Of a stretch of 20,000 nucleotides of DNA, positions 3,001 through 20,000 are shown piece after piece. The position numbers were made by a program, and so were the translations under genes. Each line of letters starts with the position of its first letter. Position 1 is the stretch's first letter. The notes beneath the pieces were generated by a model. It ran no database searches. It was given only the letters and a program-made list of their open reading frames with translations, and had not been told where the DNA came from. This DNA comes from an uncultured virus (IMG/VR IMGVR_UViG_3300042542_004481) (Duplodnaviria; Heunggongvirae; Uroviricota; Caudoviricetes). The DNA is taken from positions 57,223 through 77,222 of IMG/VR virus record IMGVR_UViG_3300042542_004481, one strand, 5' to 3'.

Positions 3001-4501
3001 GTACCACGTCCTGATATACTTCTTGAAGACCTTCTGTAATATTGGCTTTGCTATAGTTTACAAAAGAACCTAAGGCGTTATTGAGAAGATTTTTAGGTCG
3101 ATATGTAGCGCCTGTAGTAAGAGTTTTCCAAGTACCTTTCCATCCATCATCTACAACGCTCCAGGCAGCTTTACCTGCTTTTCTTAAAGCTTCATCGTAT
3201 ACTAGTTTACCTTTAATACCTTTTTCAAGTTCTTCTCTAAAAGCAGACATCGGTTTCCAACCTCTGAGAGCTTTATCAAAAACTATCTTATTAGATATCC
3301 AAAGAGCAGGAAGGTTCCAATAGAAAGCTTGTCGACCGGCATTACCGGCTTCTTCATAGATTCTTTTTAAATCTTCTTCTCCAGGAAGCTTTCCGTTGTT
3401 TTTCTTATAGTACTCATCTATAAGACTATCTCTTACATCTAGTTCTGTACTTCCTCCTTCTAGTTTGGATTCGGATACTATTGCTGTATAAGCTCGAGCA
3501 TCGCGATAGAAAGCTCCAAATGTTTTAGAGGCTCCGGCCCAACTAAGAGCTTTTTCAAAAGCTTTAGGACTTTTAGCAAGCTCTGTTCCATACTTAAATG
3601 TTTCTGGAAGAATCGCTTTTCCTATACCGCTAATACCCTTGCCTCCGTATGTTTTAGCAAACTTCCAAAAATCATTTGCTTTATCTGCTTTTTTAAGCCA
3701 GTCATATGTGGTAGTGATACCTTTTTGTACATCTTTGAACTTATCGTAAAGATTAAGAGCTTTTTTAATGTTTCTACCAGCTTGTGTGGCCGCTGCAGCC
3801 CAACTTGCTCCTGCAGTCTCTGGAGCTAAAAGAGTAGACGCCCCCCAAATAACAATTTCTTCTGAGGCCATCTCGGCAAGAATACCTCCTGTATAACCAA
3901 AGTCTACAGTCATATTATTAATCCAAGATCCTAGCCCTCCTTTGCTGTCATGACCTATAGCGTGCCATCGAGCCATTTCTTTAGCCGATGTAATATTAGG
4001 ATCATTCCAATCCCTCCAAGTATTCCAAGGAAGCATATCTGTATATGCAGACTGAGCAAGATTCAAACTAGAGGTCAAACTTCGACTATATCTCTCTAGC
4101 CAACTAGATTCTTTATTATAAAGCGATTCATTATCTCTGAAAGGAGTAAAGCCATACTTTTTATAAACACTAGGCAAAGCTGCATACTTCTTAAAGTTTG
4201 CTCCATCATAATCAGAGTTATAAGCTTTTACTTTAGAATAGTACGTAGGGTTATTAGCCCAAGTTCCAGCTGTTCTACCAAGTTCTCTTAATCTTTCGGC
4301 ACCTGCTTGAGACGAGGAAACACTTACCTGTTTTTGAGTAGGTATCATGTTTGTACTCATCACTCCCACAGGATATGACCGAGGAGGATCTGGAACTTTT
4401 ATATCAGTGATATCTAAACTTCTAGGATCTACTAACCCTGCCGATACATCAAGTTGTATGTTAGAAGTAGGAGCATCTAAAGGATTAACCGGTTCTGCCA
4501 T
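1..4501 (-). CDS. Giant virion-associated/ejection protein with zincin-like (HExxH) metallopeptidase domain; 3'-truncated by the window edge (at least 1500 aa)
   Basis: ATG at 4501-4499 lies 5 nt after the upstream stop (TAA TAA TC ATG). My manual translation (MAEPVNPLDAPTSNIQLDVSAG...) stays open to position 2, and the ORF track reports nothing in this frame because there is no stop. It contains a Gly/Ala-rich hydrophobic segment (3776-3901), EGLQEVYQ (3011-3034), long charged helical regions, FLHELIHE (HELIH at 821-835), YGLKNEHEFLAEMFTNPRF (about 623-680) and a Pro/Thr/Ala linker at the edge. Confidence 0.9.
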   Translation of the reverse strand, partial: MAEPVNPLDAPTSNIQLDVSAGLVDPRSLDITDIKVPDPPRSYPVGVMSTNMIPTQKQVSVSSSQAGAERLRELGRTAGTWANNPTYYSKVKAYNSDYDGANFKKYAALPSVYKKYGFTPFRDNESLYNKESSWLERYSRSLTSSLNLAQSAYTDMLPWNTWRDWNDPNITSAKEMARWHAIGHDSKGGLGSWINNMTVDFGYTGGILAEMASEEIVIWGASTLLAPETAGASWAAAATQAGRNIKKALNLYDKFKDVQKGITTTYDWLKKADKANDFWKFAKTYGGKGISGIGKAILPETFKYGTELAKSPKAFEKALSWAGASKTFGAFYRDARAYTAIVSESKLEGGSTELDVRDSLIDEYYKKNNGKLPGEEDLKRIYEEAGNAGRQAFYWNLPALWISNKIVFDKALRGWKPMSAFREELEKGIKGKLVYDEALRKAGKAAWSVVDDGWKGTWKTLTTGATYRPKNLLNNALGSFVNYSKANITEGLQEVYQDVVQNTMTDYYKDRFHNFYTTGSRSVFGSFYDHMKNIDPGRAVETFSSGYFMGSMAKFPQKLMFDIVPEQFHKWTKPEDYKQWRDSQEKNTKSIVDALNAATENNGFWDAITENTVSQITNQREADMANEANDKRSYYTITDDSVSQHLHTLIRFGKLDLIRDQIKDMKGLDAKGLQEAFGPMEGTDQEVSNEYQSRLDSFLKKADMVEKMFTETEEKYGNPFDPKSYNRKTDPEGYEREYNAWVGWEEAKKAAVKSSYDFFRTTGRMKSVMDELIANKPVAESIASEYMMALNTNTLDVEIESLKGNKAKNEKGLIEVYREGDEESQKKADELQGRLDVLEKYRDAIDEYKKAVEIDKANQTGVVSEEQRSVEKGAKVKQGTKVKNKKGREAVVAKIKKGKAYDENGGLIGKVSSLEILEGEREEDILTSATQNLYDNYREFVKYISRAKGEVAIDAGIDESFMKLKDYYALGVDRESYAAAVDILHNPSKFTEYASRIAQLAGELKRQNKAKIEESYKKFLAGMHKSQLFSKLYEMGVFVDEKGMEAILEEKIPSVFYYIAGEKEMVPFESDTYKKILDLFEKYEAAQGVRFTEKPIPEEEMRMDALMFSGQTRNKIKGDVRTYEDLAKEYGFNLDPSVETKVKTRDILQKIIDSKYSTYREKALARRLLGIVSKESVITFKKLSLGGYFQYSADGKTGTFIDPRYFSSDYRGDSKAIETVFLHELIHEITSFELDKNPQFKAAIKKLMDRAIKEYETNRPSDEMVYGYAVSKPFYGLKNEHEFLAEMFTNPRFAAWLDTIEYETTGKTVWKEFLNMLQYMLSQILGVTKDNTLLKEALNIATSYIETIHGQSVAQPERVGEKIRPGRRRPSTGPTAGATLNPGSSIEQYRSAGVLPALVQSYRNFVKDRTGADSLTAEQWPDQNVASKTDDEVANSPEFRQYLQMGSGEVQRILNEYNRTKVAPQPTPAPTAATFTPTTPYGTPTGAPLTTATPAPAVPT
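480..1000 (-). other. Zincin-like metallopeptidase domain within the giant ORF
   Basis: GGYF...TFID strand region, then VFLHELIHEIT, then the downstream EFLAE helix that probably supplies the third Zn ligand. This pattern is typical of MPTase/zincin domains in large phage polyvalent and virion proteins. Boundaries are approximate. Confidence 0.8.
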
Positions 4502-7755: not shown

Positions 7756-7811
7756 TGTATCTGCGAAATTTAGACAAAAATCTTATAAGTTTTTTAAACC
7801 TATAAAGTTTA
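7756..7811 (-). promoter_or_regulatory. Only intergenic spacer in the window: AT-rich, two adjacent imperfect palindromes, possible promoter/operator
   Basis: AAAAATCTTATAAGTTTTTT (7776-7795) matches its reverse complement at 18 of 20 positions. It abuts TAAAC-N7-GTTTA (7795-7811). On the minus strand these are followed by TAAATTTCGC, one mismatch from the Bacteroidota -7 element TAnnTTTG, just upstream of the ATG at 7755. Confidence 0.4.
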
Positions 7812-10340
7812 TTGTCCTTGTGATGTATTGTACATGTTAGCTTGAGCCTGAAGCATAGCCTGGTAGTTAGGATCAACCGCGTTCTCATCAGCTACTCCCA
7901 TCTGGTTCTTTGTAATCTGCCAGATAACGCTGTCATCTACACCTGGCATATTTTCACGATTTGTCATGAAAGCATCGCTAAGTGATGTAGAAGATGAGCT
8001 ATCCGGCTGAACAGGTCTTCCATGATCAAAGAAGATTCCTCCACCAATTTCCGGATGCATCTGATATTGATCTGTAAGCTGATTAACGTTAAAGGCTGTC
8101 CAGCGATTATTCATAGCATTGATATAAGACTGGCGAAGATTATTTCTAGCTGCTGTCTCAGCGTTCTGGAAGTTCTGATCTACAATAGCGTTATACATAT
8201 CTTCTTGAGCTTTTATATTAGCTCGATTTGTATTAGCCGCATTAAGGATTTGTGATCTTTGAGACTCTAGCTGATTTGCTATACCGACGTTCATGGTATC
8301 GTAACGACCCATGATGTCTGCAGCTTGACGAGCAGCCTGTCCTTGAATCTGAGAAGAACGACTAGATAAAGCTTGAGGTCCTTGGAAAGCAGCAAGATTC
8401 TGAGCCATAATATTAGCTTGTTCAGCATTAGCTGCTAGAGCGCGATTAGGATCAGCGAACACTCCTTCTGGAAGTACTACTTCAGGTACAGGAAGATTTG
8501 GATAACGTTTTCTAAGTCTTGCCCAATCTCCAAACTTACCTGAAATATTTATGATATCTTGTAACCACCAAGGAGCGGAAAGATTTCCAGCTGTGTATTC
8601 AGGAGCCGCAGGATCAGTTACTTTTTCTTCAGTTTCTTCTGCAAGCTCTTCGATGATACTCGGAGCGCTTCTTATACCTGCCACCTCACCAGCTGTAGTA
8701 TTGGTATAAACACCGTCAGCTTTAGAAATTCTTTTGTTTGCATCTGGTCCTGTTTCATCGTCATAGCCTTTTGCTTCAATAGCAAAAGGCTTAAGAGTTT
8801 CTGCTAAAGTTGGGTCTAGCTTTTTATCAGATAGAAGGTCACGATATCCGATGTAGGATATTTGTTGAATCCCTATTGCTTTTCTATCGGCTGGAGGTTG
8901 AACACCTGCTCCTACAAAAGCTTCATTTAAAGTTTTATACTTATCGTTTTTACAGTCAGGACCGGACTTAAAATCTCCTTTATTATCAAAGCAGTTAAAC
9001 CCTATACCCTCACTTTTTAAGTGAGCAGACAGTTTAACATTTCTGTTCTGCATCTCAAGAAATTGTGTTGTAAGTTGAGCAGGAGTCATAGCTTCTAACT
9101 CTTGTACAGTGAAGCCTGGATTTTTTCCTAGGTTTTCTGAGTTTTTAGCCGCAGCTAAAGTCTTATCGTAAAGAGCTTTCTGTACTTTGTCATTACCAAA
9201 AGCTTTTCCTAACATGCTAAGGTTTTCATCAGGTGTAGTTCCCGTAGGAGCTTTTTCACCAACCTTATAGTATTTACCATCCGAACCTTGAGTATAAACT
9301 TTTTTGTTTCCTCTAGTTTGGTAAGCATTGTCACGAGCCTCTATGTATTCTTTTTCTGTTTTATAATCAGCACGTTTGATGATAATACCGTCTTTAGGTA
9401 TATCCTGGCGCTTAACTACTCTAGATACTTCAGTACCTGATTTACCTGGAGCAGGAATACCCATACCTCCGCCCATAACAGGAGGATATCCACCGTATAC
9501 CGGCGGAGCAGGATATTGAGGTCCAGGATTACCAAAACCAATAACGTTACCGTTTTCATCTAGAACTTCGTAAGCTCCGGATTGAGGATTATAACGCATT
9601 GTTGTTTTACGACGATTGAATAATCCTCGCTGAGCTTTAGGAACATAACTTCCTCCTTTAGACATATTGTCTGGAGCTGGTTGTTCCGGTTGACCCTGCG
9701 TCTGTGTAAAATCATTAGGATCAATATTCATAGTCATCATATACGGCATAGCAATAGCCGGGATCCCCTGAGGAAATCCTTTGATAGACTCTTGCGCTAA
9801 AGCGAGCTTACCCAACTTTAAATTGTAGTTGGTGATCATCATCTCTGCAGTTTCGCGCTGAAGACGATCTGAATCAGGATCTCTAAGAATCTTGACATAC
9901 TTGTTTATATCGTATTGCTTAGCAATATCGGCCGGGGTATATCCACTTTTCTTTTCGGTTTTACCAAACATCTTTTGGACATCACCATCTTTTATCTTCA
10001 TAGAACTGTGGTCAGAGAAGATAAAGGAATCTGGTGGAGCATTTAGCTTTGTTCCACCATCGTAGTGTTTTTTACCACCGATTTTAAAGTGCGCTGGGAT
10101 TCCTCCAAAACCTGCAGGCTGAAAAATAGTTTCACCTTTTTCAGCTTCAATATTAAAAGGACCCTTTGCTTCTTGTATTGTACTTGCTACCTTAAGATCT
10201 GGAGCAGAAAACTCGCCGGCCATAACAGGCCAGCTAAGCTGATTAGCATTTAAACCAATCGCTGCTCTACCGGCATTCATCTTTACAGCCAGCCCAGACT
10301 GTGCCTTAGGCATGGACACTATTCTGACTTTTCTTTTCAT
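7809..10340 (-). CDS. Putative virion cargo/structural protein, 843 aa
   Basis: Long ORF starting 1 nt after the upstream stop. The N-terminal region NIEAEKGET...FKIGGKKHYDGGT...FIFSD resembles, from recall and unverified, a conserved block of crAss-like structural proteins. It has a Pro/Gly/Tyr linker, a Lys-rich middle, and a Gln/Asn/Ala-rich helical C-terminal region typical of ejection proteins. Confidence 0.75.
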   Translation of the reverse strand: MKRKVRIVSMPKAQSGLAVKMNAGRAAIGLNANQLSWPVMAGEFSAPDLKVASTIQEAKGPFNIEAEKGETIFQPAGFGGIPAHFKIGGKKHYDGGTKLNAPPDSFIFSDHSSMKIKDGDVQKMFGKTEKKSGYTPADIAKQYDINKYVKILRDPDSDRLQRETAEMMITNYNLKLGKLALAQESIKGFPQGIPAIAMPYMMTMNIDPNDFTQTQGQPEQPAPDNMSKGGSYVPKAQRGLFNRRKTTMRYNPQSGAYEVLDENGNVIGFGNPGPQYPAPPVYGGYPPVMGGGMGIPAPGKSGTEVSRVVKRQDIPKDGIIIKRADYKTEKEYIEARDNAYQTRGNKKVYTQGSDGKYYKVGEKAPTGTTPDENLSMLGKAFGNDKVQKALYDKTLAAAKNSENLGKNPGFTVQELEAMTPAQLTTQFLEMQNRNVKLSAHLKSEGIGFNCFDNKGDFKSGPDCKNDKYKTLNEAFVGAGVQPPADRKAIGIQQISYIGYRDLLSDKKLDPTLAETLKPFAIEAKGYDDETGPDANKRISKADGVYTNTTAGEVAGIRSAPSIIEELAEETEEKVTDPAAPEYTAGNLSAPWWLQDIINISGKFGDWARLRKRYPNLPVPEVVLPEGVFADPNRALAANAEQANIMAQNLAAFQGPQALSSRSSQIQGQAARQAADIMGRYDTMNVGIANQLESQRSQILNAANTNRANIKAQEDMYNAIVDQNFQNAETAARNNLRQSYINAMNNRWTAFNVNQLTDQYQMHPEIGGGIFFDHGRPVQPDSSSSTSLSDAFMTNRENMPGVDDSVIWQITKNQMGVADENAVDPNYQAMLQAQANMYNTSQGQ

Positions 10341-10341
10341 G

Positions 10342-13300
10342 TTAGTCTAAGTATTCAATTGTACCACCTTTTGCCATAAACTCCGCAATCTCATTGTCAT
10401 CCATGTAAACATAGTCGTTTTCACCACCTAGTTTACTTTGATAAGGATTACCAATATTCATAGCTCCTATATTACCCATAGATCCAGGTTGAACCTTTGC
10501 TCCCATTTGATCTGGGCGGAAACTTTGTCCGGCATAAATATCAAATGTATAATCTCCTTTTTTCATACCCTGAGCGTAATAGTTAGCATCCGCTCCTTGA
10601 CGAGAGCGGATACGATCCAACATAGCTTGTTGTTCGTCCATCTCTCCGATTCTTGCTCCTAAATCTAATCCGGCAATCATCCACGGTGGTGTAGAAGGAT
10701 TTGTAAAGATTCCAAAACGACGACGCTCATCAGTGCTATAACCCATAGAGTTACCTATTCCTTCATGAGCCGTTTCTTCACCACCATCTTGATAATATCC
10801 ACCGTATGCATATGCTCCTCCCATTTTACGACGGTATAAAAGAGCATCCATCTGCTGTTCTTGTTCAGGTGTCACAACTTGTTCAAATCTTTGAGCATAA
10901 GGATTAGCCATTATGATATTTCCTTGAGCATCTCTTGGCATATCTCCTGCAGGATTAGCATTAGGGTCTGTATAATTTGATCCTGTTGTCGAAGATGATC
11001 CAGTTGTAGAACTTGATCCACTCGCTGAAGATGATCCGCTTTGACCAGGCATCCTTTCAAGACTTACATTAGTCTTTACTCGGCGAGGTGCAAATCTTGT
11101 AGGAGCAATTGTATGTAATAGGCCGCTTTTTTTATCTACTTCAACATTAGCCTTAAAGCCTTTATCTCCCCAGTACTTTTCTATTTGTTCAGGAGTCATG
11201 CCTGCTGTAGGATTGTTTGCTACGTAACCGGTGCCTTGTTGCCAGTTATACGTAGTAGGCATGTTGCTCCATCCTTTGAACTTAGTTTTGTAATAAGGTC
11301 CAGTAGGATTGTAAGGGAACATGCCATAACCAGTTCTATACTCAGGATTATACCCATAAGGATTATATCCATACGGATTATATACAGGATAATTTCCCTG
11401 AGGGTAATACTGCTTTAGATAATCATCAAGCATTTTTTGAGCATCCTCTTTGGTAAGATAATTAGAAGATGTTTGACCAGTTCTTTGAGGAAAACAACCT
11501 TGACTTGTACAAATCATTGAAGGATCATAATTAGTATTACTTCCCGGTGTTCCTGCCTGTATCTGAGCCCATTTTTCTGGAGTCATTGGTACCTCATTAC
11601 CTTGATCATCTGTATAAGTGTCCGGCATAGCCGCTCCAGCTTGAGCAAAGATTGAGTTATAAGCTTGCGGAATAAACTGCTGATTCATAGCTCTCATGTT
11701 AGCACGAGCTTGTGCTCTAGCTTGTTCTCCTGAGTTATATCGATTCATATCCGCTCTTTGTTGCATAGAGTTGTAAGGATTGAATCCGAAGCTTCCGCCA
11801 TCTTGAAACATTTCATCAGCAACTTTTTCATCTACCGCAGTAAGCATATTATCTTTTAGGTAGTTGTTAAAAGTTGTTTGATTATCCATAAGATAACCGC
11901 TCTGACCTACATTCTGAGGAGCTTCTCCACCGTCTTGTTTACGCATAGAGCGCATGTATTTCATTAGAGCAGCTTTAGCTTTTTTACCACCCTTTTTGTA
12001 AGTCTCTACCATCTCATTTTGAGCTTGCTCTAAACCTACATTACCACCAAACTCAGTGGCAGGGCGATAACCGTATCCGAAGATTGATCCGCCAACATCG
12101 TAGCTTCCTCCGCATTCCATACAAGGAACATTTTCATGAGCTCCTCCAGGAAGAACTTTTCCTCCCATATTCTTTTTAGGAGCATAAAGTATATCCATAA
12201 GAACTTGTCGCTTAATGTCTAATCCTTCTTGAGGATAAACATTAGGGGCAGCTATTTGAGCATTAACATTTGACAATTCTTCCTGAATATCTTGAGGAGA
12301 CATCCCTTGATAAACAGTTTTATAGTCAGAATATACTGTACTTAAATTTTGAGGGCTTCCTCCGTTTTGATAAATTCCTCCCATATTATAATGAGTATAA
12401 GTACTTCCGCCACCCATATATTGAGGTTGGAACGGATAGCCGCTAAAGAACATATTTGCCGGCGGTTGCTGAGGGAAAGCAATCATATCTGTTGGCCCTC
12501 CCATAGCATAAAATCCCACAGGAGAATTAGGAACATATCCTCTTTCAAAGAATCTTTCTTCAGTAGGCTGCTGTGGGAATGCGATGCCTCCTTGCTTTTT
12601 TTGTGGAGTACTCATATCATTGTTGTTTTGTACTACGGGTGACGTAGGTTGTATGTACATTGCTAAAGTATCTTTTTCTTGTTGATCAAGAGCTTCTAAA
12701 TCAGCTTTTTTCTTACGTTTTGATAAATATTTTTTATTTTCTATAGCTTTTCTTTCTTGATCAAACTGCTCTTTTCTTTGATCATACATTTGCTGGTAGT
12801 TAGGAGTAATAACACCAGTAACTGGAGAAGACAAATATGCTGGTTTTGGTGCTATGTAAGGTGTAGCTGCTAGCATCTGTTGACGATTCTGTTGAGCTTC
12901 TGATTCAAGAGTTGGAGTATTACCTACATACTTATAAGCTTGCATTCTAGATGTACCCATAGGGCTACCTGTAAAAGTACCTCGAGTATTTTCTTTCCAC
13001 TCAGAAGGTTTGAAAGTTCTAGACTCAAAAACATTTCTACCACCAGGACTATTGTAAACCATAGGATTTCCTTGAGCATCAGTACCAGCATAGATCATAC
13101 TATGTCCCGGTGACCAATAAGGATTTCCTTTCGGATTATAATTTCCTTGCCAAGGAAGACCCGGTGAATAGTACTCTTTCTTTATAATGTCTCCTGGTTG
13201 AGCTTCTGATAAAGGAATAGGAACTATTCCTTCTTGAGATAAAACAGCTTGTTGAGCAAGGTTACCAGGAATCATTGGCATACGAGATCCTGCAGGTATG

Positions 13301-16300
13301 TTCCCAATTGGAGCAACTGTTGTAGCACCAGCAATATTGTAACACTGATTTGTATAAGCATTGCAAAAATTACCAGTAGCAGGTGCTCCTACTAAGAATT
13401 TTTGAGGGTTGGCTGCTGCATCTATTTTTTGAGCTGTAGGTATAATATTAGATCTCACTTGAGCAACGCGAGCTTTTTCAGCTTCTAGTTCCGCAAGCTT
13501 TTGAAAATAAGCATCCGCGTACTCGTCGTAAGTCATAGGAGCTGCAGGTTGACCACCATCTTGGTAAGGCTTAAAATATTTCTTACCCTTTGGTCCAAAG
13601 AGATCTTCATTTCTTTTATAAAGAATCTCATTGATACTGCTCTTTATATTTTTAGAAGTGCGCTTGCTATCGCGTCCACGCTTAAGACCGCCTTTTTTAT
13701 ACTCCATCATAACTTCTGTTTCGTCTTCCATTTGCTCTTTCGGATCATTACCGTACTCATCAGTACCCGCTATTGCAGCAAAATATCTTCTCTGAGCAGT
13801 GCTTAGTCTTCTGCCGTAGGAATAACCGGATTGTAAAATTCTCTTAGCTGTATCTGGATTTGTAGATCCGCCTTTAGCATAAGATCCCATAAACAAAGCA
13901 CTTAAAGGATACTGACTTTCAACAGGTTCAGAAAAATACAAACCTGTTACTTTTTGAGTAGGATTATCCCACATCTGGCCAAACTGTTTTCCGCCAAAAA
14001 TGTTACGATAATAACCTTCAGAAGCTAATCCCATATACATTTCGGCCGCAGTATCATCAATAAGATCTTTAGGTCTTATACCTTCTGCATGACGTAACTG
14101 CATTACTCGAGCATGTATTTCTGTAGGATCTACCATATACTCTGCAAAATCTGTTTTAGGTCTAGCATAAATCGGATTCCGAATCATAGATCTATAAACA
14201 TCCTGATGGAGCTGTGGTAAATAATCATTAGCATCAGTCCAAGCATGTGTGTTTTCATGCACCGCAACAGATTCTAATTCTTCAGGAGAAAGGGTTCTAT
14301 TTACCCAAGATTGTCCTGATCTTTTTGGAAAAATTGCTGATAAAGCATCATCATATGCTGTAAAACTTGGAGGGTAATACACACCACCTATGACACCGCT
14401 GCCGCCAAGATCTTTAGGATCAGTAAAAATATGAGGTCTTCCTATAAGCATATCAGCGTACTGATTTCTTAATGGATAAAATTTAGACTGAGCATGTTCC
14501 CAACGATATAAGCGGTCTGCGGCTTCTATACCGATATCTCCCGCTAAAAGATCATTATTAATTTTTTCAATAGTAGCCGCATCTTGTATCCAATTCTTTG
14601 ACCACGTATTTCCTCTATTTAAAGCATCTACCTGTTGCTTATAAAGCTTAGGATTTAGAAAACGTAGCGCTGCGTAATTAGTTTCCTTAGCAACTATAGG
14701 TAAAGATTGTTTTAGATTAGTTACATATGCTGACTTCATTATAGGAGCTATAGCTTTACTAACTCCTTTTCCCATTAAAGAAACAACAGGTGCTGCTGCT
14801 TCAAAAAGTGGAAAAGAACCATACGCTGCAGATTGTAAAGGTATACCTACTTGTTCGTAAGCTCCTACTTCGCTAAAAGATCTCATCTGCCCAGTATCTG
14901 GGTCTTTGTAATAATACTTAGATCCTTCTTCTCCTTCTGCCCATTCCTCTGTTTTATTAGCGTAGTATCTAAGTGTTCCTAAGGTATTACCATAAAGATT
15001 TTTTTGAACCTGCAAGTCAGCCGCATCCTTTTTTTCTTTTGCTTCTGCCTTAGCTTTAATGACCTTTCCCTCTCTGATATAATCATATTGAGGCATAGAG
15101 GCACTGGTCATAACTACTTGCGGTGTTGCAACAGAACCTGGTTTAGATTGAATATCTGCAGGACTCCAGTTATAAGTATATGCTGGACTACTTTGAGGTA
15201 AAGGTGTACCACTACTCTTTGGAAAAGAGGTAAAGAACGGTTGCTGAGTTTTAGCTTGATTAGCGGCAGCTACTTTTTTAGCAACCCAAGCTCTCTCAGC
15301 ATCTATTCTCTCCTTAGTCTTATTCTTCATGAGAAGAGATTTTTGATACTCTTCTTCTGAGTTGATAGTTACTCCACCTTTCTGATACTGATTAATCCAA
15401 CCACCTTTTTTAATCGGTGGAGCATTATAAACACCTGTACCAGTTGAATTATATCCATGACTTGTCCACCAAGCAGCACGCTGCTCTGGAGTTGTGTTTG
15501 GTGCTTGAAGGTGTGCTGGTAAAGGAGCACGACCTGATTGCATCACCGGGCTACCATCCGGATTAAAAAGAGGTTTACCTGCTTGCATAACCTGGTATTG
15601 AGGAGGTTGATAAGTAGCAGGTTTAGCTACTGGTACTGGAGCCGGCACTTTTGGTGCAGGTACCGGTACAGGTACCGGTACAGGTACTGGTGCTGGTACT
15701 GGTGCTGGTACTGGTGCTGGTGTTGAAACAGGAGTTGAAGTAGGCGCAGGTTTAGGTTTGGCTGGCACCGGCTTACTTGATTTAGGTTTAGATGCCGGTT
15801 TAGCTGGTACAGGAGGCGCTTGATATATTACAGGCTGAGGTCTTGGAAAAATTGCAGTTTGGGGCCACACCCCGAAAACATTTGTAAATCCTCGACGCTG
15901 ATCATATGTTGGAGGATGATGAAAATATAACGTTCCTGTACTCCTAAAAGGAACTGTATGACTAACAGCATTATTATACACTAATCCGTATTGAGATTGT
16001 AGTCTATTTTGCTGCCCCTTAAATTGATGATAAGCTCTCTTTGCTTCGTCTTCTGATGAAAAACCATAATTTGATCCCCATCCTGTCAGGTAATAACGAT
16101 CATGAGTACGTGTAGCACGATTTGCAAGGTTTTGATTTACTAAATTTTGTATCGCTATATTATAAAGCTGAGCGTTGTTATATGTACTTAGACTGTCTGT
16201 ATAAGCTTTTAATCTAGGATCATTTCTATCGTAAACAATAGTAGGTCTAGGACCCCCTACTTGCATTGCTATCCCAGTATATTCAGATTTTACCGTAGGC

Positions 16301-16656
16301 CATGGTACACCTGTAGATCTTGAAGGCATGTTTGCTGTAGGAAACGGTATGCCTGATCCAGAAGAAGTATTATCCCAGTAAGCATCTCTTTTTCTACGAA
16401 GAGCATCTTTATAGAAATCTTCTTTTGTTTCAAAAATAGGCATAGGTATTTCCTTCACCATAGTGCTCCCTGGAAACATGTAATTCTGTCCAGGATACAT
16501 AACCGTCGGAGGACCCTGGTTATTAGGTATAGCCATTATAGGATAAGGCACTCCCTGCATTGTAATGTAAGGACTAGGTATAATGTTGAAATCATTAAAC
16601 CTATCTGGCGAGTTAGGTAGATACCCGGTATTTGTTATGGCTCCTTTTTTCTTCAT
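10342..16656 (-). CDS. Mosaic 2104-aa putative virion cargo polyprotein with HExxH metallopeptidase, NlpC/P60-like domain and repeated xxGG motifs
   Basis: Uninterrupted ORF whose start overlaps the upstream stop (ATGA). It contains HENTH (14245-14259) with PTEIHAR, FCNAY...AQPGDII...GHSMIYAG, a Pro-rich linker, and about 20 [YFMK]xxGG motifs. Confidence 0.88.
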   Translation of the reverse strand: MKKKGAITNTGYLPNSPDRFNDFNIIPSPYITMQGVPYPIMAIPNNQGPPTVMYPGQNYMFPGSTMVKEIPMPIFETKEDFYKDALRRKRDAYWDNTSSGSGIPFPTANMPSRSTGVPWPTVKSEYTGIAMQVGGPRPTIVYDRNDPRLKAYTDSLSTYNNAQLYNIAIQNLVNQNLANRATRTHDRYYLTGWGSNYGFSSEDEAKRAYHQFKGQQNRLQSQYGLVYNNAVSHTVPFRSTGTLYFHHPPTYDQRRGFTNVFGVWPQTAIFPRPQPVIYQAPPVPAKPASKPKSSKPVPAKPKPAPTSTPVSTPAPVPAPVPAPVPVPVPVPVPAPKVPAPVPVAKPATYQPPQYQVMQAGKPLFNPDGSPVMQSGRAPLPAHLQAPNTTPEQRAAWWTSHGYNSTGTGVYNAPPIKKGGWINQYQKGGVTINSEEEYQKSLLMKNKTKERIDAERAWVAKKVAAANQAKTQQPFFTSFPKSSGTPLPQSSPAYTYNWSPADIQSKPGSVATPQVVMTSASMPQYDYIREGKVIKAKAEAKEKKDAADLQVQKNLYGNTLGTLRYYANKTEEWAEGEEGSKYYYKDPDTGQMRSFSEVGAYEQVGIPLQSAAYGSFPLFEAAAPVVSLMGKGVSKAIAPIMKSAYVTNLKQSLPIVAKETNYAALRFLNPKLYKQQVDALNRGNTWSKNWIQDAATIEKINNDLLAGDIGIEAADRLYRWEHAQSKFYPLRNQYADMLIGRPHIFTDPKDLGGSGVIGGVYYPPSFTAYDDALSAIFPKRSGQSWVNRTLSPEELESVAVHENTHAWTDANDYLPQLHQDVYRSMIRNPIYARPKTDFAEYMVDPTEIHARVMQLRHAEGIRPKDLIDDTAAEMYMGLASEGYYRNIFGGKQFGQMWDNPTQKVTGLYFSEPVESQYPLSALFMGSYAKGGSTNPDTAKRILQSGYSYGRRLSTAQRRYFAAIAGTDEYGNDPKEQMEDETEVMMEYKKGGLKRGRDSKRTSKNIKSSINEILYKRNEDLFGPKGKKYFKPYQDGGQPAAPMTYDEYADAYFQKLAELEAEKARVAQVRSNIIPTAQKIDAAANPQKFLVGAPATGNFCNAYTNQCYNIAGATTVAPIGNIPAGSRMPMIPGNLAQQAVLSQEGIVPIPLSEAQPGDIIKKEYYSPGLPWQGNYNPKGNPYWSPGHSMIYAGTDAQGNPMVYNSPGGRNVFESRTFKPSEWKENTRGTFTGSPMGTSRMQAYKYVGNTPTLESEAQQNRQQMLAATPYIAPKPAYLSSPVTGVITPNYQQMYDQRKEQFDQERKAIENKKYLSKRKKKADLEALDQQEKDTLAMYIQPTSPVVQNNNDMSTPQKKQGGIAFPQQPTEERFFERGYVPNSPVGFYAMGGPTDMIAFPQQPPANMFFSGYPFQPQYMGGGSTYTHYNMGGIYQNGGSPQNLSTVYSDYKTVYQGMSPQDIQEELSNVNAQIAAPNVYPQEGLDIKRQVLMDILYAPKKNMGGKVLPGGAHENVPCMECGGSYDVGGSIFGYGYRPATEFGGNVGLEQAQNEMVETYKKGGKKAKAALMKYMRSMRKQDGGEAPQNVGQSGYLMDNQTTFNNYLKDNMLTAVDEKVADEMFQDGGSFGFNPYNSMQQRADMNRYNSGEQARAQARANMRAMNQQFIPQAYNSIFAQAGAAMPDTYTDDQGNEVPMTPEKWAQIQAGTPGSNTNYDPSMICTSQGCFPQRTGQTSSNYLTKEDAQKMLDDYLKQYYPQGNYPVYNPYGYNPYGYNPEYRTGYGMFPYNPTGPYYKTKFKGWSNMPTTYNWQQGTGYVANNPTAGMTPEQIEKYWGDKGFKANVEVDKKSGLLHTIAPTRFAPRRVKTNVSLERMPGQSGSSSASGSSSTTGSSSTTGSNYTDPNANPAGDMPRDAQGNIIMANPYAQRFEQVVTPEQEQQMDALLYRRKMGGAYAYGGYYQDGGEETAHEGIGNSMGYSTDERRRFGIFTNPSTPPWMIAGLDLGARIGEMDEQQAMLDRIRSRQGADANYYAQGMKKGDYTFDIYAGQSFRPDQMGAKVQPGSMGNIGAMNIGNPYQSKLGGENDYVYMDDNEIAEFMAKGGTIEYLD
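10978..11037 (-). repeat. Degenerate 18-bp tandem repeat encoding a Gly/Ser/Thr linker (GSSSASGSSSTTGSSSTTGS)
   Basis: Plus strand reads tgatcctgttgtcgaaga / tgatccagttgtagaact / tgatccactcgctgaaga / tgatcc. Confidence 0.8.
12930..13450 (-). other. NlpC/P60-like (papain-fold) Cys-His hydrolase domain
   Basis: Candidate catalytic Cys in GNFCNAYTNQCYNIAG (codon 13363-13365, aa 1098). The typical 'IPLSEAQPGDII' segment follows, then His in GHSMIYAG (13102-13104, aa 1185) and a polar residue in VYNS. Boundaries are approximate. Confidence 0.75.
13885..14650 (-). other. HExxH zincin-like metallopeptidase domain within the 2104-aa protein
   Basis: GGVYYP...SWVNR strands, then AVHENTHAW (aa 800-804), then YMVDPTEIHARVMQLR (Glu aa 846, candidate third ligand). 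Confidence 0.75.
15659..15718 (-). repeat. 12-bp tandem repeat (5 units) encoding a Pro-Ala/Pro-Val linker
   Basis: Plus strand has ggtaccggtaca x2 followed by ggtactggtgct x3, inside the Pro-rich tract at about 15600-15830. Confidence 0.9.
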
Positions 16657-19600
16657 CGCTGAGATAGAAGATTTTTGTTGTTTGTAATGAGTACCAGGAT
16701 CTTACGATTGCCAGACACCTTTCTACGTAAAAATACAAAATTTGCGTAGTGTCTAAACTTTTTTCTTTGCAGAGGATCTTTACTATAATTTAAGTTATTT
16801 GGATTAAGAATCCTAACATAACCATTAGGTTCTGTGTTCCAAATCATCCTCTCAGCATACGAACCTACGTTAGGTGTAGGAGGAGGATAAGCCGATCCAA
16901 TCGGAAACTCTCCTCTGCTATCTGTAATATCCCAAAACTGATTGAAGCGATACTTCTGTTCTTCTTTAGAATAAAGGATCTCAATATTAGTCGGGTTAAC
17001 CTGTGGATAGCTCAAGATCAAAGGAGCATTGTTCTTAGGTGTAAGATTAAGCTTGAGAAGACCTGAACACTGTTCTGTGTTATAAACAACAGCTTCATCA
17101 AAGTTAAAATCTAGCACATGGAATCGATCGTAGCAGTTATCAGCATATTTGTATACTTCCATCTGATACTGAATCGACCGCAATGTGTTTACGTTCTGCA
17201 CAGTGTTGACCATATATTCTATCTCGAAAGGATAGTCTATACCGTAATAGTTACAGTAGCTGTCACAGCGGTAATTATGTATCCATATACCATTCTCCTG
17301 ATTCTGATTAGGATTATCATTAAGAACGCTCAGGAAAGTATTTTTACCTGGGATCAAAAGATTAGGATGCCAATCGTGCCAGCTAATCCAAGCTCCTCGC
17401 TTAGGATCAAAACTTACGGTCCAGGATGCATCTTCAAAATAATCAGGATCGCCTAGCTTTATCGGAAGCATATTGTTTACAAGGAAGTTATCCCTGTTTA
17501 CATATGTAATAGTAGTCCCAGCCGGAAGACTTCTTTTTACAACAAAATCTCGCTTAGTAAAATACGCTAACTGGTTTTCGTTGTCGTAGATAGATTGACA
17601 TCCTATACCGATTACTGGGTTTTCTACTAACTCAAAATTAGGGAAGGCCTCGAGAAGCTTGTATGGTAAATAGTTAAGGAACCACCATCTCAAATCTTCG
17701 CCGGATATTTCTGTTATACCACCTTTGATAGTGAAGATTTTACCTTGGTCTTGGTTAATCCAATAGATACCTAGAGGAGTATTGATTACACTAAGTCTGT
17801 CTTGACAAGATCCATACTGATATGGTTTGTCAGCATTAAGAAGACTCTGCATAGGTTGACTAAACAATCCTCCATCACCAATCGTAAGCTTAGTACCAGC
17901 ATCTGTTTGAAGCTGGTCTACTCCTAAGAATTGTACAGGGCTTTCGGCATAGAAAAAGATTACCGCACCGTTTTTATTAATCGGTTTGATACAACTTACT
18001 TTATTGTTAAAATCAAAGTAGTTGTTGGCAAGAAACAAGTACCAGTTATCTCTTGTGCCTTCACGTTGTGCAGGTAGAGAGTAGATTACTCTTGTAGGAT
18101 AATACTGATAACAAGTTTCAGCTAGGTTTGGATCATATATTCTAGGTTGTGTTTCTCCCCAGGAAACATAGTTGAGATACGTTTTACCAATGCCCAGACT
18201 TATATCGTATTTGTAATAGTTACCGGCTTTTATAATCGAAGTATCAAAAAGAGCTTTGACATCGAGGATAGGGTAATGTTTCTGAGAATCCATATCGCCC
18301 CAATCACGTAAGCCTACGTTAATCTCTGTCTCAACAAAGAAATCTTTTACTCCAGAGTTGAAAAGATAAAAGTACGCAAACTTTACAGCAAAGCCTTTTC
18401 CTTGAAGAGTAAGGATACCATGACAAGAATATCCATCTAAAGAAAATTGTCTACTAGGTGGAATCTGTTCCCAAATTGGATCGCTAGGTGTAAACAACGA
18501 CGTCACTGAATCAGTAAGCGCCGATATAGAATCCTGTACTTCAAACTTTTGACTATTGAGCCAAAAGCGAGGATAAGGAAGCATCCGCTTTTCTAGATAG
18601 TTAAACTCATAACCATCCGGCTGATCATACAACCAATCGTAGAAATAGAAGAAAGTATTCTTTTCTGTATATCTAGCTAAGTAAATATCACCATTAAAAA
18701 GTGTTACTGTTTCAGCAGTAGATTTAGTACTCTTATCTGTCCAACAAGTTGATACCGGAACCTGAATTATACCTTCTATTTGACCATATTGATTACGAAG
18801 TCTTTGCTTATAGCCTACGTAATAGCAAACCGAATTTGTAGTGAAAGCTTTTGCTGTTGGATTGATAAGTCTCATTTGATTATTAAACAATCCATATGGT
18901 TCCATAAGATTGGCTACAGGAGATGTAGCAAGCTGACGAGTATTATCACCTACAGGAAAAGGTAATGGAGAATTTACTTGTAAAGCTACAGTAGTAGATC
19001 TAAACAGATTGTTGATTCGATAGTTGCTACCAAAATCTAAAATGTTCGGCCCAAGATAACTTTGCTCGATAATACTTCTACGACGATCACCAGATACTGG
19101 AGGAATAGCAAAAGAATCATACAAACAATGAGAATTATACTTAAGAGCAAAATCTCTATATTTAATAATAGATCTTATAAGATCTAGTGTTGAATCAACC
19201 CCCTGCGACCAAAACGATATAAAAGTAGGGATACCTTGAACAATAAGTAACGGAACAGGAATATCTTCAGTTGCTCCTCCTTTTTGATCAATTTGATAAC
19301 TATATCCAGCTAATCCAGGAATAATTCCTGCAGTAGCTCCAATAGTCGCAAGAGTTGCATAATAAGTTCCTGGACCAAATCCTAAAGCATTCAAACCTAA
19401 AATTCCTCCAGCATCCCAAGCAGCAGCGTTAGCGGTAGCAAGGGCTGTTGCCATAACACCATAACCAGCGTTTGCTGCAGCAACTCCTGGAGCATTTGTA
19501 ATAAGATCCGTAGGAGTCATGATTTGATACGGCATGTTTCTACGAATGGTTCTTTCCCCATTCATAGCCACAGATGCTATACCTATACCTACAATAACTG

Positions 19601-20000
19601 ATGTATAAAAAGCTGTATTAGAAATAAGCTTAGTCTTAGGATGTCTTTCAGAAAACTCAAACTTCCCTGTAACAGTGCCTCTTAGTTCTTCATAAATCTT
19701 AAACTCTTTTCCTGATAAAAAAGGTTTACTAAAGTTTGTATCAGGGGAATGGAAACTATAAATAGTATTAGAAAAACTTCCTACTGGCGTATAGCCATCT
19801 CCTGCAGCCGTAGGAGAACCATCTATTTTGCAAACAGGCGCATTAGTTTCTGTAGCAGATAAGAAAGGATCTATATTAAGATCGTTGTAAGGATAGTTAG
19901 GATATAAACCGGTGCGAGGTGTAATGTTGCCTTCAATAGTGTAGACACCCATATTGGATACTACACCTTTAGCAAGAACTGTACGATTCCCTTGACGGGT
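16653..20000 (-). CDS. Putative tail stabilisation/nozzle ('muzzle')-like structural protein; 5'-truncated (at least 1115 aa)
   Basis: The frame stays open upstream of the track's ATG at 19952 to the window edge (TRQGNRTVLAKGVVSNMGVY), so the true start is probably outside the window. The C-terminal two-thirds is aromatic- and beta-rich, with propeller-like segments (RVIYSLP, GDGGLFSQ, YGSCQDRLSVINTPLGIYWINQDQGKIF, WTVSFDPKRGAWISWHDWHP) that resemble podovirus nozzle/stabilisation proteins. Confidence 0.72.
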   Translation of the reverse strand, partial: TRQGNRTVLAKGVVSNMGVYTIEGNITPRTGLYPNYPYNDLNIDPFLSATETNAPVCKIDGSPTAAGDGYTPVGSFSNTIYSFHSPDTNFSKPFLSGKEFKIYEELRGTVTGKFEFSERHPKTKLISNTAFYTSVIVGIGIASVAMNGERTIRRNMPYQIMTPTDLITNAPGVAAANAGYGVMATALATANAAAWDAGGILGLNALGFGPGTYYATLATIGATAGIIPGLAGYSYQIDQKGGATEDIPVPLLIVQGIPTFISFWSQGVDSTLDLIRSIIKYRDFALKYNSHCLYDSFAIPPVSGDRRRSIIEQSYLGPNILDFGSNYRINNLFRSTTVALQVNSPLPFPVGDNTRQLATSPVANLMEPYGLFNNQMRLINPTAKAFTTNSVCYYVGYKQRLRNQYGQIEGIIQVPVSTCWTDKSTKSTAETVTLFNGDIYLARYTEKNTFFYFYDWLYDQPDGYEFNYLEKRMLPYPRFWLNSQKFEVQDSISALTDSVTSLFTPSDPIWEQIPPSRQFSLDGYSCHGILTLQGKGFAVKFAYFYLFNSGVKDFFVETEINVGLRDWGDMDSQKHYPILDVKALFDTSIIKAGNYYKYDISLGIGKTYLNYVSWGETQPRIYDPNLAETCYQYYPTRVIYSLPAQREGTRDNWYLFLANNYFDFNNKVSCIKPINKNGAVIFFYAESPVQFLGVDQLQTDAGTKLTIGDGGLFSQPMQSLLNADKPYQYGSCQDRLSVINTPLGIYWINQDQGKIFTIKGGITEISGEDLRWWFLNYLPYKLLEAFPNFELVENPVIGIGCQSIYDNENQLAYFTKRDFVVKRSLPAGTTITYVNRDNFLVNNMLPIKLGDPDYFEDASWTVSFDPKRGAWISWHDWHPNLLIPGKNTFLSVLNDNPNQNQENGIWIHNYRCDSYCNYYGIDYPFEIEYMVNTVQNVNTLRSIQYQMEVYKYADNCYDRFHVLDFNFDEAVVYNTEQCSGLLKLNLTPKNNAPLILSYPQVNPTNIEILYSKEEQKYRFNQFWDITDSRGEFPIGSAYPPPTPNVGSYAERMIWNTEPNGYVRILNPNNLNYSKDPLQRKKFRHYANFVFLRRKVSGNRKILVLITNNKNLLSQR

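Follow-up and report, generated by a model that had tools for sequence, protein, structure and literature searches.

A conserved Gly-Gly seam peptide joins exchangeable cassettes in a probable virion cargo protein of an uncultured crAss-like phage

The analysed stretch of DNA (the window, 20,000 nucleotides) carries the muzzle gene, directly followed by the gene of a large modular protein, P0001, and by a further gene, P0158. In a longer copy of the locus (L009), the muzzle measures 1693 aa and the genes are ordered ring 2, ring 1, muzzle, P0001. The following features are located on the minus strand:

16653..20000, minus: muzzle gene, running past the window end (PF25731 crAss_MUZ, E 6.9e-12 and 4.6e-27)
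10342..16656, minus: P0001 (ORF of 2104 aa), variable modular cargo-position protein, first gene after the muzzle, placed by synteny
7809..10340, minus: next gene, P0158 (843 aa), N-terminal domain conserved
16429..16653, minus: N-terminal cassette, residues 2-76, family-defining; M-K-K-K-G, then A-I-T-N-T-G-Y
15607..15843, minus: Pro/Val/Ala-rich low-complexity spacer, residues ~272-350
15373..15414, minus: double seam, residues 415-428; GG, a W-I-N-Q-Y handle and GG
14737..15372, minus: mostly helical cassette, residues 429-640; shares homology blocks with P0009, P0011, P0003, P0002 and P0013
13921..14679, minus: zincin-like cassette with HExxH, residues 660-912; homology blocks 660-880 in many representatives
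13867..13881, minus: seam YAKGG, residues 926-930
13552..13866, minus: linker cassette, residues 931-1035; small helical domain, two seams, basic stretch
12601..13551, minus: Cys/His cassette, residues 1036-1352, the putative NlpC/P60 module of the earlier note
12586..12600, minus: seam KKQGG, residues 1353-1357, pLDDT <50
12406..12585, minus: residues 1358-1417, two repeats of 30 residues that both end in Y-x-M-G-G
10345..12585, minus: C-terminal 747 residues, collinear with the entire body of the 821-aa L012 orthologue
10345..10734, minus: C-terminal cassette, residues 1975-2104, ending in GG and the 6-residue tail T-I-E-Y-L-D

P0001 is probably located inside the particle of an uncultured crAss-like phage, judging from synteny and from a weak similarity, over 70 residues, to an annotated virion structural protein. 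Its N-terminal cassette resembles residues 6-79 of Cellulophaga phage phi17:2 gp041 (E 6e-6). This cassette takes most of the P0001 homology matches, and the family contains 71 N-terminal and 28 internal copies of it. The spacer harbors the DNA repeat families D1 and D3 (15618-15729). In the double seam (pLDDT <50), Y424 and G428 are invariant and G427 is conserved in at least 90% of 13 sequences. The helical cassette behind it has a mean AF2 pLDDT of 54 and matches no PDB fold, and the zincin-like cassette, with its HExxH at residues 800-804 (nt 14245-14259), matches no Pfam family. YAKGG forms the end of a segment with a pLDDT <50, directly after which a confident small domain begins. The linker cassette is composed of a helical domain (930-975), YKKGG (986-990), the basic stretch and YQDGG (1031-1035), and 37 alignment ends cluster at residues 1029-1046.

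The Cys/His cassette has a folded core (pLDDT 70-96). Its assignment to NlpC/P60 in the earlier note was not confirmed by Pfam, a PDB profile search or Foldseek. Its bracketing by YQDGG and KKQGG, proposed in the same note, is clear: residues 1042-1357 are missing from the L012 orthologue, and a close relative encodes them as the end of a protein of their own, 426 aa long. Residues 985-1357 are 80% identical to the separate protein P0010, and KKQGG is both the end point of P0010 and the point where homology to L012 down1 resumes. The 30-residue repeats are shared with P0006, P0007, L012 down1 and L017 down1. Over the C-terminal 747 residues, identity with the L012 orthologue is 46% across 585 aligned residues; a 93-residue indel begins immediately after GGG, and the largest indels relative to the orthologues adjoin GG. 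The last GG of the C-terminal cassette is invariant or nearly so (alignment A4, 20 sequences), and this GG-plus-tail ending precedes the next gene in 23 loci.

All 22 pentapeptides listed earlier as recurring xxGG motifs are present in the P0001 ORF. The form [YF]xxGG is found at 13 sites where 1.64 are expected, a count reached in 0/5000 shuffles, both of the whole protein and within windows of 200, 100, 50 or 30 residues (means 1.6-2.3, maxima 7-9). GG alone is a weaker signal, with 29 dipeptides against 16.4 expected from composition, reached in 9-45 of 5000 shuffles. Tyr is found at position -3 in 12 of these 29 sites, 6.1 times the background. The 64 other ORFs of the 77-kb contig together contain eight [YF]xxGG, at most one each. 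Enrichment is absent both from the muzzle ORF (0 against 0.71 expected) and from three giant ORFs, 1871, 3511 and 2654 aa long (0, 1 and 0 against 0.60, 0.98 and 0.85). Conservation at the protein rather than the DNA level also stands: the motif glycines use mixed codons (GGT 24, GGA 22, GGC 10, GGG 2), the 15-nt motif stretches have on average 7.9/15 bases in common, and no direct-repeat family coincides with the motif positions.

The survey of relatives covered 40 related phage loci, 245 family proteins and 149 representatives. The three genes that follow the muzzle are each enriched in [YF]xxGG, 4.0-4.75 times (113/23.8, 87/18.7 and 36/9.0 observed/expected, in gene order), compared with 0.95 times in 218 upstream ORFs (34/35.9) and 1.3 times in 35 muzzle ORFs (48/37.0). 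The motif is confined, family-wide, to the cargo-position genes after the muzzle. Among the representatives, 412 were observed against 87.8 expected. The family consensus reads P-x-[YFM]-[QK]-x-G-G: over 2189 GG runs, M, F or Y stands at -3 in 43%, Q or K at -2 in 47% and P at -5 in 15%, while 737 control runs have no pattern of that kind. The glycines of GG are kept at 25/27 positions in the L012 orthologue (46% identity; other Gly 26/45) and at 22/26 in the L017 orthologue (31% identity; other Gly 9/26). In a comparison with P0006, they are conserved no better than other glycines (19/32 against 24/44). The [YF]xxGG pattern holds as a real and widespread family trait, and no published description of such a seam motif was found in the literature. 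An origin as a compositional artefact of Gly/Tyr-rich disordered sequence could be considered, as G (8.8%), Y (6.8%), P, Q and N are abundant in P0001, which also has Y/G/N/P-rich stretches. This explanation is refuted for practical purposes by the shuffles, including those confined to 30-residue windows, by the family-wide enrichment and by the retention of the same positions in orthologues.

In keeping with the earlier note, the motifs lie at module borders and in predicted linkers, with differing payload domains between them. P0001 strings together cassettes that can be exchanged independently of each other and are joined by a conserved seam peptide. The cassette order is mosaic among homologues, and corresponding cassettes are found either fused or as separate genes, joining exactly at GG. 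Of the 28 internal copies of the N-terminal cassette, 18 are preceded by GG within six residues (background 4.7%), and four more are, by eye, one-residue register shifts. All six motif-type GG sites covered by two AF2 models lie in low-confidence segments (pLDDT <50) or directly border them; the sole non-motif GG covered, NSPGG, lies in a folded core. Within P0001 itself, 36/280 BLAST alignment ends fall at most 2 aa from GG against a null of 19 +/- 27 (reached by 199/2000 shifts), a difference that is not significant in a set dominated by the N-terminal cassette.

The last GG lies at most 15 residues from the C-terminus in 118/245 family proteins and is followed by one of a few conserved tails, with length peaks at 6 (51), 5 (16), 9 (14) and 15 (12) residues. 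These endings lend some support to the earlier suggestion that the motifs act as targeting tags. Three kinds of handle can be distinguished, W-L-D-x-Y, x-V-E-Y-L-D and the basic R-K-V-K-I-K-S-L-P, placed at protein ends or between two GGs within the chain. W-L-D-x-Y-type peptides have a GG at most 8 residues upstream in 124/169 cases and on both sides in 52. The N-terminus of P0158 is itself a basic handle, M-K-R-K-V-R-I-V-S-M-P-K-A-Q-S-G.

One of the nearest known counterparts is gp45 of Bacteroides phage crAss001, cargo protein C1 (PF25725 crAss_CARG1; Bayfield et al. 2023, PMC10172136). Like P0001, it is encoded directly after the muzzle gene and is Gly-rich (21 GG against 13.3 expected), with aromatic-GG joints at the start of both ordered segments. 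Following the residue ranges of that paper, the ordered tail-bound helix 214-245 begins four residues past A-Y-G-G (207-210), and the joint A-F-G-G-W (425-429) is inside segment 425-552, reported as one modelled portal-bound domain. Since this segment starts with A-F-G-G-W-L-N-T-Q-G-G, the joint would be continuous in the mature virion. Residues 379-422 share 59% identity (E 9e-12) with a cassette that occurs in family member P0007 and again in L012 down1, and the basic N-terminus of gp45 resembles, by eye, the R-K-V-K-I-K-S-L-P handle. Nevertheless, gp45 has no significant similarity to P0001 (best E 0.27), a PF25725 search of this genome returned nothing even at E 10, and its aromatic residue stands mostly at -1, not -3. 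P0001 is moreover 2.5 times longer and has enzyme-like cassettes. The neighbouring P0158, of the same length as gp45, may be its truer counterpart; its profile match to gp45 459-506 is weak (probability 2.6%).

Related strategies are known from other systems. The polyvalent proteins of phages and conjugative elements (Iyer, Burroughs, Anand, de Souza, Aravind 2017, PMC5512222) are large, multi-domain and codelivered with DNA, with shuffled architectures including zincin-like peptidase and ParB-like domains, and their processing by such embedded peptidases is proposed. The P0001 family is similar, with the HExxH cassette in P0001 and a ParB-like D-G-H-H-R cassette heading the L012 orthologue, although no Pfam model of polyvalent-protein domains matches P0001. 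The polyvalent concept includes no shared junction peptide, and 'glycine' and 'crAss' have 0 occurrences each in that paper. In T4 (PMC9026906), the capsid targeting sequence is a short terminal peptide that loads diverse or foreign proteins into the head, a working precedent for the 'plug-and-play cargo' of the earlier note. This propeptide spans 10 residues at the N-terminus and is cleaved off by the gp21 protease at a Glu site, whereas the P0001-family peptides are mostly C-terminal or internal and set off by GG; a search of the relatives' records for a prohead protease of the gp21 kind, with a silent control, had no match. Tal of the lactococcal phage TP901-1/Tuc2009 (PMC11409707) is a virion protein in which a Gly-rich motif between the linker domain and the catalytic domain is the site of cleavage. 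It differs in being a siphovirus tail-tip protein with one site, another motif and no repeated punctuation.

Adenovirus protease, ASFV pS273R, ubiquitin-like processing enzymes and C39 peptidases recognize a Gly-Gly that occupies P2-P1 and is preceded, a few positions before, by a hydrophobic residue, and precursors matured in this way carry a short tail after GG. GG plus a short C-terminal tail, as found in this family, resembles such precursors. In the P0001 motif, the hydrophobic residue lies further out by one position (-3, counted from the first Gly). It is conceivable, but unlikely, that P0001 is a processed polyprotein, cut after GG by a virion-borne, phage- or host-encoded protease such as one of the zincin-like domains in the cargo block. 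Such cutting would free the cassettes as individual proteins, either in the head or once injected, and the handles would be trimmed targeting propeptides, as with T4. Selection on the GG glycines and on positions -3 and -2, sites in exposed linkers, and the joining of fused and separate cassettes exactly at GG are in keeping with this. HExxH is strongly over-represented in six cargo-block proteins (5 observed against 0.07 expected), and candidate processing enzymes are therefore present in the particle, which also counts against an uncut hinge. In print, polyvalent proteins are predicted to be processed by zincin-like peptidases, P1 DdrB being processed before packaging (PMC5512222), and fused RNAP-block proteins of crAss-like phages are 'likely cleaved', with a zincin-like protease adjoining (bioRxiv 10.1101/2020.03.07.982082); Tal and the T4 sequence are further precedents. 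Pro at +1 is reduced to 0.5 times background after strict motifs (n=552), but also to 0.7 times at non-motif GG.

Cleavage at the joints is nevertheless unsupported. The C39, S78, C48, C5, S77 and ClpP families had no match in five records, four of them complete relatives (the S77 control was silent), and a Pfam scan of 47 + 10 + 17 ORFs, structural block included, revealed no protease family. As 0/245 family proteins end 0-2 residues past GG, the supposed mature end is not encoded by any of their genes. Strong conservation of the tails is what functional parts would show, the first cassette retains the preceding Gly (M-K-G) even in its N-terminal copies, where a cut would be needless, and some C-terminal seams read G-Y or G-D in place of G-G. 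The giant RNA-polymerase-block proteins, virion cargo in crAss001 (PMC10172136), lack the motif, joint 425-429 of gp45 is continuous in the model, and in the crAss001 papers searched, words starting with 'proteol' or 'cleav' are absent. The earlier interpretation stands for protein-level conservation, border sites, predicted linkers and restriction to the cargo position, but not for cleavage by a head protease. Still less probable is a purely evolutionary seam, a neutral to mildly useful flexible linker, uncut and without a partner, that travels with shuffled cassettes. The mosaic order, the indels adjoining GG and the low-confidence linkers agree with it. However, codons differ and no DNA repeat is found at the seams, so that these cannot be a DNA-level recombination site; moreover, the -5, -3 and -2 preferences persist over 245 proteins of low overall identity, GG is kept in orthologues of 46% and 31% identity, and the tails behind the last GG have set lengths.

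The preferred reading, with a probability of roughly 0.45, is that the seam is an uncut flexible hinge tethering docking handles. The conserved aromatic or Met at -3 and Gln or Lys at -2 would be needless in a plain hinge, and the alignment-end test and the P0006 comparison also speak against it. The crAss001 joint is a distant variant, and no tie was found between the fold of the cassette after the double seam and the portal-bound domain of gp45. The peptide P-x-[Y/F/M]-[Q/K]-x-G-G marks each cassette border of P0001 and, in the hinge model, would presumably be left uncut. During assembly, the handles may dock the cargo chain onto virion parts such as the portal, the tail rings, the muzzle or neighbouring cargo, and the Gly-Gly breaks would let the cassettes unfold and thread singly, in succession, through the tail.

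The stretch lies within a 77,222-base viral contig, the genome of a crAss-like phage, with an estimated completeness of 64% (69% for a longer 82.6-kb copy; CheckV). Its tail module is ordered as ring protein 2 (PF25702), ring protein 1 (PF24228), the muzzle (PF25731; 1693 aa in the longer copy) and then P0001, the 2104-aa protein under study. Upstream of this module are genes for a portal (phrog_6547, E 8.8e-85) and a major capsid protein of the crAss type (PF23898). By synteny, P0001, as the first gene after the muzzle, occupies a crAss_CARG1-like position, and it is followed by genes for proteins of 843, 1082, 1871, 3511 and 2654 aa, in that order.

Window 10342-16656, - strand: P0001 ORF, 2104 aa
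Window 7809-10340, - strand: 843-aa neighbour
Window 2-4501 (in full G000:C1:56108-61723), - strand: 1871-aa ORF, HExxH at residue 1223
G000:C1:45571-56106, outside the window, - strand: 3511-aa ORF, D-F-D-I-D at residue 2388, HExxH at residue 795
G000:C1:37601-45565: 2654-aa ORF, HExxH at residues 134 and 887

The DFDxD of the 3511-aa ORF is the motif found at the catalytic site of virion RNA polymerases in crAss-like phages. P0001 itself belongs to no Pfam (scan at E 0.01) or PHROG family. A ferritin-like gene (PF00210, E 1.2e-22) is present inside the virion gene block (L050:10575-11165, +).

In Bacteroides phage crAss001, the gene after the muzzle encodes cargo protein C1 (gp45, PF25725 crAss_CARG1), which mass spectrometry and cryo-EM detected in virions (PMC10172136). 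P0001 resembles it in that its gene comes immediately after that of the muzzle in a tail module of crAss type, but does not match the family profile (portal-bound domain); searched against the whole contig in six frames at E up to 10, PF25725 gave no match. Residues 2-71 of P0001 are similar to a protein of Cellulophaga phage phi17:2 annotated as virion structural, and this similarity, together with synteny, suggests that P0001 is located in the virion. The 843-aa neighbour, which may be the true C1 counterpart, is close to gp45 in length (843 vs 842 aa) and gives a weak profile match to its portal-bound domain (probability 2.6%). It has a strongly conserved N-terminal domain at residues of about 55-130 (E-A-E-K-G-E-T ... 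G-G-K-R-H-S-x-G-G ... D-S-F-I-F-S-D; column identity averaging 44% across 20 phages), which recurs, as judged by eye, in phi17:2 gp041.

The 22 pentapeptides ending in GG that the earlier note had listed were all found in P0001. The protein contains 29 GG where 16.4 are expected and 13 [YF]xxGG where 1.64 are expected. None of 5000 shuffles reached 13, either over the whole protein or within windows of 200, 100, 50 or 30 residues, so local Gly/Tyr-rich composition is not the explanation. Elsewhere in the contig, 64 further ORFs contribute eight [YF]xxGG altogether, none with more than one. Conservation is at the protein level, as proposed: codon use varies among the motifs, which do not constitute a DNA repeat. 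Compared with itself (BLAST), P0001 shows no internal repeats at E 1. Two short in-frame tandem repeat tracts occur in its gene, one encoding a Pro-Val/Pro-Ala run (window 15618-15729, residues about 310-345) and the other a Ser/Thr-Gly run (window 10969-11037, residues about 1873-1892).

With the muzzle as query, 40 IMG/VR loci were collected (39-68% identity, 10 kb on each side), one of which is the longer copy of the window's own phage. Across these loci, [YF]xxGG characterises the family, and its enrichment is limited to genes that follow the muzzle.

Table. [YF]xxGG by gene position in the related loci (non-duplicate + strand ORFs of at least 150 aa)
Upstream genes (218 ORFs): 34 observed, 35.9 expected
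Muzzle (35 ORFs): 48 observed, 37.0 expected
First gene after muzzle (32 ORFs): 113 observed, 23.8 expected
Second gene after muzzle (32 ORFs): 87 observed, 18.7 expected
Third gene after muzzle (27 ORFs): 36 observed, 9.0 expected
Fourth gene after muzzle (18 ORFs): 8 observed, 5.7 expected

An exhaustive profile-free search with P0001 residues 1-1200 returned at least 1000 proteins at E <= 0.001, 163 of them to 1e-10, and the 149 listed family representatives contain 412 [YF]xxGG against 87.8 expected. P0001 had no match in 50,697 phage records (tblastn), and a related-locus search with P0001 as query returned its own contig only. In crAss001, virion cargo also includes the giant proteins of the RNA polymerase block (PMC10172136); those of this contig hold 0, 1 and 0 motifs, so the motif is not a mark of all cargo. 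The phi17:2 protein gp041 (L001:25179-27866), annotated as virion structural, has the N-terminal cassette in common with P0001 and contains [FY]QxGG four times where 0.52 would be expected. As phi17:2 is a cultured phage, outside Crassvirales as classified, gp041 offers a system in which these sites could be tested.

A consensus for the seam, the peptide found at cassette borders, was derived from 2189 GG runs in 245 family proteins. It reads P-x-[YFM]-[QK]-x-G-G, with Pro at position -5 in 15% of the runs, Met/Phe/Tyr at -3 in 43% and Gln/Lys at -2 in 47%; Trp at +1 is 4.8 times as frequent as in the background. Upstream and muzzle proteins, with 737 GG runs, show no such consensus, and no published description of these seams was found in the crAss-like/Crassvirales literature outside subscription journals and picture-only supplements.

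Short conserved peptides, here called handles, are often found beside GG. W-L-D-x-Y is present in 169 copies in the 245 proteins, 124 with a GG at most 8 residues upstream; 54 copies are C-terminal and 52 internal with GG on both sides. The basic handle R-K-V-K-I-K-S-L-P (42 copies) is C-terminal in 22 cases, 20 of these after GG, and N-terminal in 14, and x-V-E-Y-L-D has 29 C-terminal copies, 23 of them after GG. The last GG lies at most 15 residues from the end in 118/245 proteins, and the length of the remaining tail peaks sharply at 6 (51 proteins), 5 (16), 9 (14) and 15 (12) residues, while none of the 245 ends 0-2 residues past GG. P0001 has W-I-N-Q-Y internally between two GGs and terminates with GG and T-I-E-Y-L-D. 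At 23 loci, a protein with this type of ending is directly followed by a gene starting with the basic handle, which after P0001 is that of the 843-aa protein.

Homologues match P0001 in pieces only, and the order of the pieces differs among them. Residues 2-76 make up the N-terminal cassette, of which 71 proteins have a copy at the N-terminus and 28 an internal one. A GG falls in the 6 residues preceding 18 of these internal copies, mostly touching them, compared with 4.7% of random 6-residue windows; a further four copies are one-residue register shifts by eye. The closest orthologue (821 aa, locus L012) is collinear with P0001 residues 985-1041 and 1358-2104, and the parts of P0001 beyond it start and stop at seams. 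Within the collinear part, an indel of 93 residues, larger than any other, begins directly after GGG. The placement of the motifs at segment boundaries was borne out, as most internal cassette copies, the additional parts and the indel abut GG. Glycines of GG are kept at 25/27 aligned positions in the L012 orthologue (46% identity) vs 26/45 other glycines, and at 22/26 vs 9/26 in a second orthologue (L017, 31% identity), but are no better kept in the homologue P0006 (19/32 vs 24/44). When BLAST alignment ends in P0001 were compared overall with the positions of GG, no significant association emerged. A 42-row mosaic alignment was discarded, since all 11 of its zincin rows were misaligned, sharing no pairs with BLAST.

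The payloads themselves vary. At the same place, the L012 orthologue starts with a ParB-like cassette (D-G-H-H-R; L012:13324-13550, +), closed by Y-K-R-G-G. DUF5872 (PF19197, unknown function, E 1e-10 to 3e-12) is a cassette in four relatives, at residues 69-138 of P0045, P0074 and P0150, where it begins directly after a G-K-G-G seam, and at residues 862-927 of P0031. Across the loci examined, products of the cargo genes after the muzzle range from about 215 to 2926 aa.

Two parts of P0001 were modelled with AlphaFold2 from shallow alignments: residues 405-660 (13 sequences, mean pLDDT 54) and 900-1360 (21 sequences, mean pLDDT 66). In the first, the double seam at 415-428 is below 50 and is followed by helices. 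In the second, YAKGG, the GG of YKKGG, YQDGG and KKQGG are in or at the edge of segments with pLDDT below 50, a small domain (930-975, pLDDT 87-93) begins directly after YAKGG, and the non-motif NSPGG is within the folded Cys/His core. All six motif sites covered are thus placed in predicted linkers; such linkers account for 54% and 33% of the two models, respectively.

Neither model had a PDB match at E <= 0.001 (Foldseek); for the first, compared with a view to the portal-bound fold of C1, the mean pLDDT was 54. Papain-like top rows for the second (CcbD, USP47, USP28, a Josephin-type clippase) were not counted, with E 0.05-0.6 and TM about 0.1. VIA-align (wide) gave helical-hairpin matches only (Z <= 7, model residues 380-442), barely covering the Cys/His core, and querying PDB sequences with P0001 or profile A3 returned nothing meaningful. 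YQDGG and KKQGG, said to bracket an NlpC/P60 module, do flank the Cys/His cassette (1042-1357), which in a relative forms the end of a separate protein, 80% identical over that region; the NlpC/P60 label was confirmed neither by Pfam nor by PDB profile or fold. The putative zincin-like cassette owes its label to HExxH at 800-804, and a Pfam scan of residues 640-930 (E 0.01) gave no family. P0001 may be comparable to the polyvalent proteins (Iyer et al. 2017), with an HExxH cassette and a folded Cys/His cassette as candidate enzyme or effector domains; neither has a Pfam, PDB-profile or PDB-fold match, and no zincin-like MPTase domain is recognised by profile. The word 'glycine' does not occur in that paper (PMC5512222).

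The earlier note had taken the motifs for head-protease cleavage sites and/or capsid-targeting tags, yet no evidence for cutting at GG was found. Unlike for the substrates of GG-directed proteases (adenain, pS273R/Ulp1-like, C39), no cognate protease gene was detected in five records, four of them complete relatives of 122-129 kb: adenain PF00770, Ulp1-type PF02902 and C39 PF03412 were each absent, the controls matching 7/14 genomes for PF03412, one for PF02902 and two, below cut-off, for PF00770. As for head-protease processing (T4 CTS, HK97-type), HK97-type PF04586 and ClpP PF00574 matched none of these five records, nor did T4 gp21-type PF03420, for which the control was silent everywhere. 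Peptidase-like Pfam matches in 47 + 10 + 17 ORFs of this phage comprised only DUF2201-type metallopeptidase-VWA and DUF1287/CHAP-like genes of the replication half. Between the genes for portal and major capsid protein, a position at which a scaffold or prohead protease is encoded in many phages, lies a 417-aa ORF (L050:3984-5237, +) without a Pfam or PHROG family; it would be the obvious place for an unrecognised protease.

The ordered segments of crAss001 gp45 are 214-245 on the tail rings and 425-552 on the portal (PMC10172136). Aromatic-GG joints bracket both: 214-245 begins four residues after A-Y-G-G, and 425-552 starts A-F-G-G-W-L-N-T-Q-G-G and stops 10 residues short of F-A-Y-G-G. Because the portal-bound segment begins with the joint, this joint is continuous in the mature particle, and the two crAss001 papers searched contain no word beginning 'proteol' or 'cleav'. 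The most likely reading, to which we give a probability of roughly 45%, is that the seam is an uncut hinge tethering docking handles. Seams would then lie between cassettes, each of which unfolds in turn as the cargo is ejected.

A processed polyprotein, its handles being targeting peptides trimmed as in T4 (PMC9026906), appears unlikely given the continuous gp45 joint and the lack of a protease among the searched families. A firm 'not cut' is nevertheless weakened by the excess of HExxH in six cargo-block proteins (5 vs 0.07 expected), where zincin-like sites are a recurrent feature. Zincin-like processing of phage polyvalent proteins (PMC5512222) and cleavage of fused crAss-like RNAP-block proteins (bioRxiv 10.1101/2020.03.07.982082) have been proposed, and TP901-1 Tal is cut at a Gly-rich site (PMC11409707). 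That the seam acts without a partner is less probable still, and a compositional artefact is highly improbable in view of the shuffles, even in 30-residue windows. Prokaryotic ubiquitin-like tags, GlyGly-CTERM sorting signals, transglutaminase-type Gln/Lys cross-linking at -2 and internal translation starts at Met-containing seams were dropped as unsupported.

The crAss001 structure raised the question of how megadaltons of protein cargo are loaded and ejected. For this question, a conserved junction peptide and a small set of handles provide concrete, mutable targets, and junction peptide and terminal handles explain how cargo genes vary in length while their ends are kept. In both gut and sea, crAss-like phages belong to the most abundant viruses, and the handles, if sufficient for loading, could become a tool to deliver proteins into Bacteroidota. 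It is conceivable, though doubtful, that seam and handles form a packaging-and-delivery code, in which any domain that stands between seams and is tethered to a handle would enter the crAss-like particle and leave it by threading in a set order, perhaps to be freed by a virion zincin after injection. If true, this would be a natural plug-and-play effector-injection system common to a large clade of Bacteroidota phages.
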